Shown one piece after another: positions 32,259 to 38,639 of a DNA stretch of 64,000 nt. A program made the translations under genes and the position numbers. Location: the NCBI RefSeq assembly GCF_022539665.2, contig NC_081333.1, positions 7,998,001 to 8,062,000 on the forward strand. Reading direction: 5' to 3'. Under the pieces are notes generated by a model. It made no database searches, had not been told where the DNA came from, and saw nothing but the letters and a program-made list of their open reading frames with translations. The DNA is from Daphnia carinata. Lineage: Eukaryota. The stretch's first letter is position 1, and each line of letters starts with the position of its first letter.

Positions 32259-32777
32259 TGTGGAACTATGGTAAACACATGATTCCAGTTTGGGTATTGA
32301 ACAAATAATTTTGAGCATAGTAAAGGTTGCGTTTGGTTCTTACAGATTTAGAAAACGGCCTTCAGTGTTTTTTTTATTGTAGTTAGCAACAGGACTGTTG
32401 GTTTAAAGTATGTAAAATTGTGGTCCTTACTTAAAATTTCAATATTGAAATTTGAACGCCAAAGCAGTTAGGAAGCAATCATCACCCTTAAGTTACAGAA
32501 AAATCATATTTGTTTACTCTCCAATGATATCTTGGCATCATCCTTCGGCTTGTCATCAGTTGCTAAGTTCTATGCTAAATGAAAAATGTCACTTTTATGG
32601 CAATCCGTTTTACACAAAAAAAAAATCACACTTTTTTCTTTTTTTCCGACACGTAGCCATCTACCGCTCAGACTCGTTATTACTGGTGTAGGCAATTTCA
32701 GTCCATTGGATGCCATTCGCAGTTAGTTCAGTAGCGTGGATGGAGAATAACGCGTGGCTGGAGGAACAATTGAAAAA

Positions 32778-34700
32778 TGGATAAGATAATACAACAAAAG
32801 GATGGTAAGTATAAACATTATTATATTGGTTTTCACTTATTAATTATTGTTTATTAGATCAAATTATGAAGCTGCAGGCCCAATTATTGGAACAACAGAA
32901 AATATTAGATAACAGCAAAGCTAAGGATGGTAAGGCCTAATACGTAATGATTCTATTTATTTGCTTTTATTCGTTTGTGTTTTGTAGCTCAAATTTGAGT
33001 CTACAAGCTCAGCTAGGGGAAAAGAACAAATTGGAACGGAACAGTTTCCAAACAGTGAAGGAGGTTTTTCAAAACTCTTCCCTAACTGAACATTAGGATG
33101 AATTGGCATTAGGCAAACACAGTCAGATATGTAAACTTTTCAAATAAGAATTAAAACTAAGTATAGAATTTTAACAAACAATTATTTATTGTTTAGTTAT
33201 TCAGTCCACCACCTGACAGTGTGTTAAATTTAAATTCTGTTAGTGCTGTACTAAAAGAATCGTTAATAATAAGTCCATGCAGCGAAGGAACTGAAGAATT
33301 GTGGGACCGTATTTGGGCAGAAAATGGGTGTGGTACGGAAACCCAGAAACGGCATGAGTTCAACATAAAACATGGATTAGGTACTTTTCGGTTTTTTGTC
33401 TATTGAAAAAGTATTTTTAATGCTGTTATTTTGCATTCACAGAATTTTAGCGAGGGTTCAAGTAAAATCTGGAAGTGTTACAGGATTGAAGAGTGAGCCT
33501 ACAGTTGAAAAACACTGAAAGTGCATTACCATTAAGGTATGAGCTGCTTCTCTTGCTAAAGAACAACTTGTCCTTTACGTTCAGAGTGTTGGTGAAGCTG
33601 GGTACTTAAATGGCTCTAAAGATGTTTCAATTCGCTGGCATTGCAGCGATGAACATCATACATGGACTCTTAAGGTATGAAAGGAATTTTCTTGAAAATT
33701 TTTTGAATTTATGACGAAGCATTTCTCCTCCTTTTTGCCACCCATGTCTAATCTAAAAAAAAAATTTATCCAGTAGGAAAGGATTTTCAGCACACTGGGA
33801 ACACAACTATCAACAATGCAACATTCTATGGGTGCTATTTTATCATTCAAGAGCCTTATACAATGATTTTTATCTGCAATTTGTATGGCCTTTCCCAAGC
33901 TTCTGCCATAAGTTGAATCTATAAGTCATGTAAGTCACATGAGCAACAATTGAGATGCTTAATGGTGTTGTTTTTCTTTTCTCAGTATAGGTTAAAGAGT
34001 TAAGACAATCTAGCACATTGTCTAATGAGAAGTACCATCTTGTGTTAATAAATCCAGTACAACAGCAATCCTTTATAGTTCTGTCACAGCTAGAAACCTC
34101 AAATAATTCTGCTTCTCTGTCTAAAGAACAACTTGTCCTTTACGTTCAGAGTGTTGGGGAAACTGGGTACTTAAATGGCCCTAAAGATGTTTTAATTTTG
34201 CTGCCATTGCAGAGATGAACATCATACATGGACTCTTTAGGTATGAAAGGATTTTTCTTCAAATAATTTTGAATTTATGACGAAGAATTTCTCCTCCTTT
34301 TTGCCAACCAGGTCTAATCTACCAAAAAAAATTTATCCAATAGGAAAGGATTTTCATGTACTGGGAACACAACTATCAACAATGCAACATTGTACAGGTG
34401 CTAGTTTATCATTCAAGAGCCTTATACAATGATGTTAATCTGCAATTTGTATGTCCTTCCCCAAGCTTCCACCAGAAGTTGAATCTATGAGTCATGTAAG
34501 TTACATGATCAACAGTTGATATGTTTAACGGTGTTGTTTTTCTTTTCTCAATATAGGTTAATAGTAACATTGGATCTGAAAAAATTCTTGGTTGGGGCAA
34601 GACACTGAATAAATTGTATTGATTGGATGGATGACATGACATTTCTATACTTAATTCGGATTCCCCAGACGGTATTTGATATTAAAAAAATTGAAGTGCA
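32778..34700 (+). pseudogene. Decayed spliced gene carried in each foldback arm (coiled-coil-like N-terminus, unknown product)
   Basis: Exons with canonical GT-AG introns encode MDKIIQQKD / DQIMKLQAQLLEQQKILDNSKAKD / AQILSLQAQLGEKNKLERNSFQTVKEV.. / LFSxPPDSVLNLNSV..WAENGCGTET..KHGL. Later exons have stops and frameshifts. Copies lie in all four arms. Confidence 0.6.
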
Positions 34701-35068
34701 TATCTGGGCTCCCTTCTTTTCTGAAGCCCCGTTTCCCCTTGACTCGTAATAAGCCCGTAGGGGGTCATGCCCCTACTGTACGGTATATATAAAAACAACA
34801 TATACCGAGGTTTGGAGGGCTCTGGCCGGAAAGGGGACGTGGGGTGCCGCTTAGTCCGATGATGTGTTCACGGAGGGCGATGTGGCTACCCACAAATCCG
34901 AACTAAAGGTTAATCGCTCCTGTAAAAATGTTCCAAATCTTCAGCTCTTCTTCCGGCTTCTCTTAGCCAATCACCGGGTAATCTCCCCGGTGGGTCAACA
35001 AGGCAGTGTCTCCCCCTGCCTGGGTTGACGGCAACTTTTGAAAAGGCTATTGTGCCTTTTTAAAGTTG
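34691..35068 (+). ncRNA. Conserved ~380-nt multi-hairpin module (putative structured RNA or structured 3' region), copy a
   Basis: Hairpins gtagggg/cccctac, cggtatat/atataccg, caccggg/cccggtg, gtcaac-aggcag/ctgcct-gttgac, gcaacttt-aaaaggc/gcctttt-aaagttgc, followed by AATAAA. Homologs at 35979-36356(-), 49729-50105(+), 52541-52903(-), 56870-57248(+), 58180-58558(-). Confidence 0.6.
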
Positions 35069-35590: not shown

Positions 35591-35706
35591 TATAAAAATC
35601 TACATCTAAATGGAGAAAATAATAATGCAGTATTGCATTTCAGTTTTATTCAAAGTGTAAATGCAAGTCCGCAAGTGACTAGAAAAAAGCCAACTTAACA
35701 TCATAT

Positions 35707-35772
35707 GATTCATGGCTCATTGGTAAAGCATCGGCGCGGAATGCCGAACATATAGGGTTCGATCCCTGGATA
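35707..35772 (+). other. tRNA-like unit, anticodon-loop position GGA
   Basis: tg GCT cattggtaa AGC a TCGGC gcggaat GCCGA acata taggg ttcgatc cctg. Confidence 0.55.
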
Positions 35773-38639
35773 ATAATTGAATGCTAACAGATAAACTATG
35801 CTTACAGGAAAAAATGCTTACCATTAAACGTGGCAACAATAAAGGAGAATTGAGAAAGCTAAATAAAAAAAGATGATAAATGTAATGTGTGAAAACAGAT
35901 AATGAAGGAAACAAATTTTGCAAAAAAATTTTATAAAAAAAATTTATTAACAATTCTCTGCACATTACAATTATTTTTGCAACTTTAAAAAGGCACAATA
36001 GCCCTTTCAAAAGTTGCCGTCAACCCAGGCAGGGGAGACACTGCCTTGTTGACCCACCGGGGAGATTACCCGGTGATTGGCTAAGAGAAGCCGGAAGAAG
36101 AGCTGAAGATTTGGAACATTTTTACAGGAGCGATTAACCTTTAGTTCGGATTTGTGGGTAGCCACATCGCCCTCCGTGAACACATCATCGGACTAAGCGG
36201 CACCCCACGTCCCCTTTCCGGCCAGAGCCCTCCAAACCTCGGTATATGTTGTTTTTATATATACCGTACAGTAGGGGCATGACCCCCTACGGGCTTATTA
36301 CGAGTCAAGGGGAAACGGGGCTTCAGAAAAGAAGGGAGCCCAGATATGCACTTCAATTTTTTAAATATCAAATACCGTCTGGGGAATCCGAATTAAGTAT
36401 AGAAATGTCATGTCATCCATCCAATCAATACAATTTATTCAGTGTCTTGCCCCAACCAAGAATTTTTTCAGATCCAATGTTACTATTAACCTATATTGAG
36501 AAAAGAAAAACAACACCGTTAAACATATCAACTGTTGATCATGTAACTTACATGACTCATAGATTCAACTTCTGGTGGAAGCTTGGGGAAGGACATACAA
36601 ATTGCAGATTAACATCATTGTATAAGGCTCTTGAATGATAAACTAGCACCTGTACAATGTTGCATTGTTGATAGTTGTGTTCCCAGTACATGAAAATCCT
36701 TTCCTATTGGATAAAATTTTTTTTGGTAGATTAGACCTGGTTGGCAAAAAGGAGGAGAAATTCTTCGTCATAAATTCAAAATTATTTGAAGAAAAATCCT
36801 TTCATACCTAAAGAGTCCATGTATGATGTTCATCTCTGCAATGGCAGCAAAATTAAAACATCTTTAGGGCCATTTAAGTACCCAGTTTCCCCAACACTCT
36901 GAACGTAAAGGACAAGTTGTTCTTTAGACAGAGAAGCAGAATTATTTGAGGTTTCTAGCTGTGGCAGAACTATAAAGGATTGCTGTTGTACTGGATTTAT
37001 TAACACAAGATGGTACTTCTCATTAGACAATGTGCATACTCTATTACTTTACCTCATACCTTAATGGTAATGCACTCTCAGTGTTTTTTCATCTGTAGGC
37101 TGACTCTTCCATCCTGTAACACTTCCAGACTTGATTTGATCCCCCATTAAATTCTGTGAATGCAAAATAATAGTATTAAAAATACTTTTTCAATAGACAT
37201 AAAACCGAAAAGTACCTAATCCATGTTTCATGTTGAACTTGTGCCATATCTTGGTTTCCGTACCACACCCATTTTCGGCCCAAATACAGTCCCACAATTG
37301 TTCACTTCCTTCACTGCATGGGCTTATTACTAACGATTCTTTTTGTGCAGCACTAACAGAATTTAAATTTAACACACTGTCAGGTGGTAGACTGAATAAC
37401 TAAACAATAAATAATTGTTTGTTAAAATTCTATACTTATTTTGAATTCTTATTTGAAAAGTTTAGGTACCTGACTGTGTTCACCTAATGCCAATTCATCC
37501 TCATGTTCAGTTAGGTTTGAGTTTGGAAAAACCTCCTTCACTGTTTGGAAACTGTTCCGTTCCAATTTGTTCTTTTCCCCTAGCTGAGCTTGTAGACTCA
37601 AACTTTGAGCTACAAAACACAAATGAATAAAAGCAAATAAATAGAATCATTATGTATTAGGCCTTACCATCCTTAGCTTTGCTGTTATCTAATATTTTGT
37701 GCTGTTGCAATAATTGAGCCTGCAGGTCCATAATTTGATCTAATAAACAATAATTAATAATTCAAAACAAATATAATAATGTTTATACTTACCATCCTTT
37801 TGTTGTATTATCTTATCCATTTTTCAATTGTTCCTCCAGCCACGGTTATTCTCCATCCACGCTACTGAACTAACTGCGAATGGCATCCAATGGACTGAAA
37901 TTGCCTACGCCAGTAATAATGAGTCTGAGCGGTAGATGGCTACGTGTCGGAAAAAAAGAAAAAAGTGCGATTTTTTATTTTTTTTCCGCCATTTTTTTTT
38001 TTTTTTTTATGTAAAACGGATTGCCATAGACTTTTCCCATTTTTTATTTAATTCTTTTCGAAATTTAGTACTTAAAATAAAAAACTTAGTAGTTTAGTTT
38101 TCTTATAAAACAGAGTAGGTCTCTATGATTAAAAAAGAAAATATTGCGCTATTGTGGCAATTTACGGGATCTGCACCGGTTGGCAATGACCGGGTAAACC
38201 AACAAAATCCACTCGAAAACATATGTAATCCATGTTTTAGATAACCATAATCAATTTATGTGTCGATTAGTAGCAAGATAATCACATGACTAGCCGCTGC
38301 ATTGTCATTCCCTGCCCATGCTCTGATTCATGATTACGTTCCCAGATTCTGCCTCTTTGTATCTCAGTTTTCCCCTATTTCTACCCGGAAACGTGATTAT
38401 TCTGTTATTATGACTGTTTCGATTTATGTCCTAGCAATTATGATTAGTCTAATCAATTCTACTAAACAAAAATATGATTTGTTTCAAACATAATTCCGTG
38501 TGATTTTAAGTTTATTGTGCAGCAGGTTGTACACGAAAGGTACGCAAAACTCATAAGTAAATAATTTGACAGACGAAACAAGGTTTTGTTTTTTAACTGC
38601 GTGTTATCAAACAAACCCGACTGCAATAAAAATGTTTCC

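Follow-up and report, generated by a model that had tools for sequence, protein, structure and literature searches.

The 64,000-nucleotide stretch of Daphnia carinata DNA analysed here (contig NC_081333.1, positions 7,998,001 to 8,062,000; hereafter the window) contains two foldback elements, E1 and E2, which we regard, at a probability of roughly 0.72, as non-autonomous copies of an IS3EU/GingerRoot-type DNA transposon, with TATGG...CCATA ends, a likely 6-bp insertion footprint and mirror-image arms that would have arisen by the copying of one arm over the other. Comparison of the window with itself bears out, for both elements, the layout put forward in an earlier note made from the sequence alone (the original prediction), in which an end, a spliced gene and a structured module make up each arm and the two arms face each other across a spacer. 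The ends proposed then (32599-38025 and 55206-60218) have to be moved 3 bp further out, to 32596-38028 for E1 and 55203-60221 for E2. The features of E1 are the following:

32596..38028, no strand: E1, foldback copy with TATGG...CCATA ends
32590..32595, plus strand: likely 6-bp target duplication, left copy, CACTTT
38029..38034, plus strand: likely 6-bp target duplication, right copy, GACTTT, five of six bases identical
32777..35105, plus strand: left-arm spliced gene, frame broken at codon 36, running through the AATAAA at 35100
33544..33995, plus strand: older left-arm duplicate (90%) of 34109-34561
34690..35075, plus strand: left structured module, conserved, likely 3' untranslated region (UTR)
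35974..36358, minus strand: right structured module
35948..37820, minus strand: right-arm spliced gene with a 162-amino-acid frame, AATAAA at 35948

The TATGGCAATCC ends of the family share a 15-nt terminal motif that occurs in five exact copies in the window; TAT precedes it in all five, and the base before TAT is variable. Contigs carrying foreign flanks match the window from 32593-32596 onwards (four from sequencing run X1 and one from run X2, among the 8 of 21 matches listed), where the window itself has the flank TTT, and 12 such contigs, with an agreement of 0.43, do so from 54283 (10 of 126 matches listed). Among the foreign-flank contigs listed, TAT is always included and none starts at G. 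Outside TATGG...CCATA, the 6-bp flanks of E1, CACTTT and GACTTT, agree at five of six positions; a match at least this good has a chance of 0.0066 by composition and of 0.008 empirically. The flank-repeat scan took in five end positions and nine lengths, the combination of 6 bp with TATGG having been predicted from IS3EU beforehand. A 4-bp duplication, ACTT, outside TTATGG would also fit E1 and was dropped, because the extra base varies among the ends. No direct target duplication is found at E2, because its left flank is a mirror of its right flank. The original prediction had read these ends as bordered by a 2-bp AT target duplication. With T before AT at all five ends of the window and a 6-bp near-duplication outside TAT at E1, that reading is not supported: the AT is, to judge from the sequence, the inner part of the terminus.

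Ends of the form TA..TA and, usually, 6-bp target site duplications (TSDs) characterize IS3EU and GingerRoot elements in the available parts of PMC10045372 and PMC6839031. Fungal IS3EU families are given TAYGG..CCRTA ends in the accessible portion of PMC12730594, one consensus in its supplement beginning with TATGG, and IS3EU accounts for 0.05% of the D. pulex assembly in an excerpt of PMC8594854. The earlier link to the PIF/Harbinger-related ISL2EU group is likewise not supported: TAYGG..CCRTA together with TSDs of 6 bp is what has been published for IS3EU. Pfam returned no match in arm fragments or in 14 family proteins, neither to an integrase-like DDE transposase, as expected for a non-autonomous copy, nor otherwise, and DDE_Tnp_4, THAP and YqaJ had no match in 48 element-region fragments (56 scanned). 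The earlier statement that no transposase is evident is upheld, and with it the description of a non-autonomous, dispersed, palindromic family of DNA transposons, in which no transposase core was found.

With the IS3EU/GingerRoot elements, as far as the accessible descriptions go, E1 and E2 share the TA..TA ends (here exactly TAYGG..CCRTA) and a size within 4-13 kb, and E1 also the likely 6-bp duplication. GingerRoot copies are moreover described there with gene pieces and a lost DDE region, and fungal IS3EU elements with two genes in opposite orientation (PMC12730594, in part). In contrast, the terminal inverted repeats of those elements are 30-150 bp long, whereas the arms here reach ~2.3-2.7 kb, with a spliced gene in each of them; in S. 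lepidophylla there is hardly any expression of GingerRoot; and the structured 3' module and the tRNA-like cassettes described below are absent from the portions of those descriptions at hand, while a DDE core is absent here. The arms of E1 make up ~90% of the element, so that they dominate it, and no transposase was found, as in foldback-type elements. Foldback elements (Drosophila FB, Galileo and MULE-related elements) have in common with E1 and E2 very long inverted arms, the lack of a transposase of their own and local rearrangements; unlike in those, there is here no 7-10 bp duplication, the arms are not short tandem repeats, and a spliced gene is carried.

The arms of E1 are 94% identical to each other over the outer 0.95 kb and 99.7% identical over the inner 1.1 kb. 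An extra internal duplicate of 450 bp, with 90% identity, is confined to the left arm, which from 34013 inward is near-identical to all other arms and is joined out of register. We infer that the inner part of one arm was copied, out of register, over that of the other. The E1 palindrome is taken to be real because its arms differ by 6% in the outer 0.95 kb, the 450-bp duplicate is one-sided, the spacer lacks symmetry and, apart from the 6-mer, the two flanks are different. Just left of E1, at 31818-32260, lies a miniature inverted-repeat transposable element (MITE)-like repeated element with short inverted ends, covered by several variant contigs. Two further arms with gene and module, which like the tRNA-like cassettes described below are missing from the original prediction, are present in the window, together with a short palindrome whose end at 54283 is joined by contigs to many different flanks:

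48900..50140, plus strand: related arm M3, different degenerate gene, module at 49727-50106, AATATA at 50135
51877..54282, minus strand: related arm M4 (approximately 51870-54420 with the short palindrome), spliced gene (~53000-54200, minus), module at 52540-52906
54283..54420, no strand: short palindrome, TATGG at its end as in E1 and E2, truncated on the right

The left end of the M3 arm may lie at 48549, where the sequence starts with TATGGC. Just upstream of this arm, at 47219-48471, there are nine head-to-tail copies of a 140-bp unit with 98% identity.

The second element is part of a larger palindrome (54630-60794):

55203..60221, no strand: E2; arms 99.9-100% identical to each other, frame stop at codon 17, no direct target duplication
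57400..58040, no strand: E2 spacer, mixing forward and reverse stretches of E1-type spacer; probably a consensus artefact
54630..55202, plus strand: mirror copy of the E2 right flank 60222-60794, 573 bp, one mismatch

The identity between its arms is 99.9% in the outer and 100% in the inner part. Most of the E2 spacer is the reverse of the E1 spacer, with forward blocks inserted in collinear order, and a consensus of reads placed in both orientations would give such a mosaic; since the spacer looks like a mixed-orientation consensus, the 99.9% identity of the arms of E2 is not to be trusted. The mirrored 573 bp belong to a host gene and comprise its last exon and 3' UTR, while its upstream exon and splice donor are found on the right only. 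As to whether the mirrored flank is an assembly artefact or a real fold-back rearrangement, the two are about evenly balanced. A 209-bp fragment (54421-54629) between the short palindrome and the mirrored flank, covered by variant contigs and without a match elsewhere in the window, marks a second breakpoint. On the right, E2 interrupts the 3' UTR of the host gene at 60222-61200 (minus strand).

The gene in the right arm of E1 yields a spliced frame identical (162/162) to P0026, an uncharacterized protein of D. carinata. Of the earlier claim that each arm carries a whole spliced gene, the exon structure stands, but the 162-amino-acid frame is intact in one of the four arms only (E1 right), early stops occurring at codon 36 in E1 left and at codon 17 in both arms of E2. 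Changed codons relative to this frame amount to 19:8 and 15:7 (non-synonymous:synonymous) of 141, close to the neutral expectation, and the arm protein is probably a decaying remnant. Among the 15 of 24 joints listed, X1 contigs skip four GT..AG introns in the arm gene (53, 58, 62 and 62 nt); in the M4 gene they skip three CT..AC introns, whose sites were checked in the sequence. It is because its contigs skip introns that X1 is read as RNA; run X2 gave 6 and 2 contigs and run X3 none. Thus, the arm gene family appears spliced. Counts of changes, A>G plus T>C 54 vs G>A plus C>T 38, are not above the expectation at 64% AT; coming from a multi-copy family without matched DNA, such counts are uninformative on editing.

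A profile search with exon 4 returned 14 clusters with 95 sequences (isoforms included), all 14 representatives being from D. carinata, where the family is spread over 10 chromosome-sized contigs (7.9-14.4 Mb) and its members end at many different places. In three of the 45 rows listed, an identical protein is recorded under two neighbouring locus numbers, which is what a pair of arms would produce. Among 1.84 billion representatives, 10 matches were obtained (two from D. carinata, four from D. magna, one from D. sinensis, two from Logan and one bacterial); the bacterial one, the tetratricopeptide repeat (TPR) protein P0061, is taken as chance. Protein searches with the M4 exon and with exon 6, restricted to longer proteins, found nothing. 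An ESM Atlas lead to GCR1_C (score 0.77) had no Pfam support on the 14 members and was dropped.

Exon 4 has a homologue in the first part of D. magna P0057 (score 119, 0 of 1000 shuffles as good), and exon 3 is common to D. magna P0056 and P0059, after which the sequences diverge. The M4 exon resembles the same protein family weakly (7 of 1000 shuffles as good); a continuation of the homology through exons 5-6 into P0056 was rejected (918 of 1000 shuffles as good). The remainder of P0057 aligns weakly with the helix-turn-helix of an ISL3 transposase (26% identity, pairwise E 4e-7, database E 9), and the protein ends in a Y-x-V resembling the one with which the IS3EU core alignment opens in the published portion at hand. 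A motif scan for P0057 gave 0 matches. Its helical region we take to be typical of IS3EU transposase N-termini, and a suspected likeness of P0056 and P0059 to a second protein of IS3EU elements was not confirmed.

The structured module is ~385 nt long and recurs in the window at 49727-50106 (plus strand) and 52540-52906 (minus strand), each time behind a different degenerate gene. Among the three types in the window the module is 77-87% identical, while the genes in front are otherwise barely alignable and the flanks (500 nt upstream, 300 nt downstream) reach 51-59% identity vs a shuffle baseline of 53%. Its 5' part (220-240 nt) is 71-76% identical to a stretch of a metagenome contig, L001, behind a fourth gene, which suggests, at the sequence level, that the module occurs in another lineage. 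The stretch in L001 (915-1136, minus strand) stands behind an unrelated-looking spliced gene, towards which a second gene apparently converges. On either strand, the predicted fold of the module outperforms all of 100 shuffles (z -4.3 and -5.2), and the consensus fold is better on the mRNA strand (-113.5 vs -93.8 kcal/mol). AATAAA or a one-base variant follows the last hairpin by ~25 nt in E1 left, E1 right, E2 left, M3 and M4, and an X1 contig lies over the 3' part of the module at 57123-57258. Rfam 15 gave no module match in the window at E<=1, and short stretches gave sub-threshold partial matches only (astro_FSE, E 2.7; mir-84, E 0.26). Hammerhead, twister, hepatitis delta virus (HDV), RNase P/MRP, signal recognition particle (SRP) and internal ribosome entry site (IRES) structures were considered by eye, and none was supported by Rfam. 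Motif scans of viral contigs gave 0, 0, 1 and 0 matches, the single match (L002) covering only 21 nt, and the seven prokaryotic matches had no further similarity.

The loops between the modules carry small tRNA-like cassettes:

35364..35417, minus strand: tRNA-like cassette turned towards the left arm, with D, anticodon and T arms but lacking an acceptor stem; 21.7 bits with the Rfam tRNA model
35528..35581, plus strand: tRNA-like A-box/B-box cassette, facing the right arm
35713..35766, plus strand: tRNA-like cassette turned towards the right arm; 20.2 bits with the Rfam tRNA model
51877-51930 and 52144-52197, plus strand: two tRNA-like cassettes facing the M4 arm

The window has eight of them, all in element loops (three in E1, three in the chimeric loop of E2 and two beside M4), and the pattern has a background of one match in 100 random windows; none was found beside M3 or in L001. 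They lack the full cloverleaf of a functional tRNA, ARAGORN detecting 0 and two of the Rfam matches spanning model positions 7-64 only. The cassettes closest to the arm in E1 and M4 point towards it and run against the direction of its mRNA. In yeast, TFIIIB and TFIIIC on tRNA genes stop RNA polymerase II (Pol II), according to the available part of PMC5052057. As with those roadblocks, A- and B-box-like motifs lie here downstream of a Pol II unit; unlike there, where the main stop is upstream of the tRNA gene, the cassettes stand head-on and have no acceptor stem. By this analogy, we put forward that the cassettes might act as roadblocks. Transcripts of the two arms would have identical sense, and a poly(A)-type signal precedes the loop in each, so that hairpin RNA would require read-through. 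X1 contigs cover the module thousands of times, whereas values of 128, 17, 0.8 and 72 are reached across the E2 loop and no cover is present at 32276-32581. Termination ahead of the loop would agree with this pattern, which was not used as evidence because contig depth does not measure a level and the loop of E2 is chimeric.

These observations can be arranged in a mechanism of four steps. A transposase encoded at another genomic site would act on the TATGG...CCATA ends and integrate the element, duplicating 6 bp of target; what is observed are the ends themselves, the dispersed gene family and the variety of flanks to which the end is joined. The ancestor may have had two different convergent genes, each ending in the module, and the inverted modules would have seeded intra-element template switching that made the arms alike; the stepwise arm identity and the out-of-register junction at 34013 are consistent with such copying, and the layouts of M3/M4 and of L001 and the opposed genes of fungal IS3EU elements hint at the convergent two-gene ancestor. 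Each arm would then be transcribed inward by Pol II, the module acting as a cis-acting 3' UTR structure before the poly(A) signal, in line with contigs that skip the arm-gene introns and cover the module. Finally, and this is the least certain step, one we hold to be rather doubtful, the poly(A) signals and the head-on cassettes would stop transcription at the loop, leaving little long hairpin RNA.

Other explanations have to be set against this one. ISL2EU elements have a 2-bp AT duplication outside G-starting ends, and ISL2EU/PHIS elements carry DDE_Tnp_4/THAP and YqaJ genes. An insertion of that type into a T-AT-A target, the AT being duplicated and the ends reading GGC...GCC, or else an element with TG ends that duplicates TA, would suit the G-rich near ends and the AT/AT and TA/TA that are formally direct repeats at both elements. 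PHIS elements do have duplications of 0-4 bp (PMC10045372, in part), and PIF-ISL2EU is active in D. magna (PMC8594854, in part). Such repeats follow, however, from any TAT...ATA end, a strict target would be needed for the invariant T, and the 6-bp near-duplication at E1 (p ~0.007) is left unexplained, whereas TAYGG..CCRTA and 6 bp are a published pair (PMC12730594, in part); with no PHIS domain among the 48 element-region fragments, we consider this origin very improbable. From E2 by itself one could suspect that single-arm repeats were turned into a foldback shape mainly during assembly or polishing: its spacer switches orientation 13 times, 80 of its 646 11-mers recur on their own reverse strand (6 of 621 in the E1 spacer), its arms show one difference in ~2060 compared sites and its mirror reaches 573 bp into host sequence. 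Against this stand the features of E1, with its divergent outer arms, its duplicate on the left only, its asymmetric spacer and its flanks that differ outside the 6-mer, and an artefact is accordingly a poor candidate for the shape as a whole.

A host gene family selected for the 162-amino-acid protein and spread by segmental duplication, with the ends incidental, would be in keeping with the 95 annotated protein sequences, the spliced contigs and the related exons in gene models of D. magna and D. sinensis. Against it stand the early stops in three of four arms, the near-neutral codon changes, and database members that end at many places together with element ends that join many flanks; we find this scarcely credible. 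The remaining alternative, close to the dsRNA idea of the original prediction, accepts the same element and makes it a source of hairpin RNA and endogenous small interfering RNA, by read-through of the loop or by Pol III antisense transcription from the cassettes. Such a role, compatible with the first three steps above and in competition with the fourth only, is favoured by arms that are 94-100% complementary over ~2 kb, by cassettes that face the arms and by some contigs on the edges of the loops, and is disfavoured by the poly(A)-type hexamer ~25 nt after the module in each arm and by a run of four T (T4) that, on the cassette strand of E1 right, precedes the module; on balance it seems unlikely, though worth keeping in view.

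Several points also weigh against the IS3EU/GingerRoot-type assignment and the steps built on it. The likely 6-bp target duplication rests on one copy, E1, and has one mismatch, and the elements are placed in the IS3EU superfamily by ends and footprint because no DDE core was found. The near-100% identity of the inner arms may derive in part from polishing. The X1 contigs represent one sample, listed as 'DNA?', and bear on the family rather than on any one copy. The reading of P0057 as a putative IS3EU transposase N-terminus has thin computational support: Pfam, NCBIfam, PHROGs and the PDB gave nothing usable for it, its AlphaFold model is of low confidence (predicted local distance difference test, pLDDT, 42) and Foldseek found none at E<=0.001. 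The cassette pattern was written after the cassettes had been seen, and three of them score 21.7, 20.2 and 16.5 bits with the Rfam tRNA model, below its cut-off of 29. The covariation of the module (4 of 36 pairs change on both sides, 93% of cells pair; among 500 shuffles the observed value was reached 17 times for pairs, twice for cells and 0 times for percent paired) comes from four sequences and a structure derived from them, and is suggestive only.

Elsewhere, the window contains synapsin, TIMP, SURF6 and Mpv17-like genes. The TIMP gene (19705-20160) is on the opposite strand inside the synapsin region (~14000-25900), a nesting known from other animals, and a duplicated cluster of genes for Tyr/Thr-rich repeat proteins occupies 39200-46000 (minus strand).

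Ends of the IS3EU type are already known. A literature search, with Repbase and Dfam outside its range and a prior deposit there possible, found no description of gene-bearing arms with such a module or with tRNA-like cassettes. New in the family are the kb-long, gene-bearing and apparently transcribed arms, the conserved RNA-like structure without an Rfam match and the tRNA-derived cassettes. Very tentatively, the module could be an undescribed, transposon-borne class of cis-acting RNA under selection, maintained while the preceding genes degenerate and are exchanged, and forming with the poly(A) signal and the cassettes a terminator block that evades silencing. If true, a hairpin-shaped transposon would be transcribed and spliced without long double-stranded RNA, which would amount to an escape from RNA silencing. 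The results also suggest that many 'uncharacterized protein' models of D. carinata (95 sequences, isoforms included) are transposon arms. They further suggest that palindromes of this kind corrupt the assembly consensus and may rearrange neighbouring host genes.

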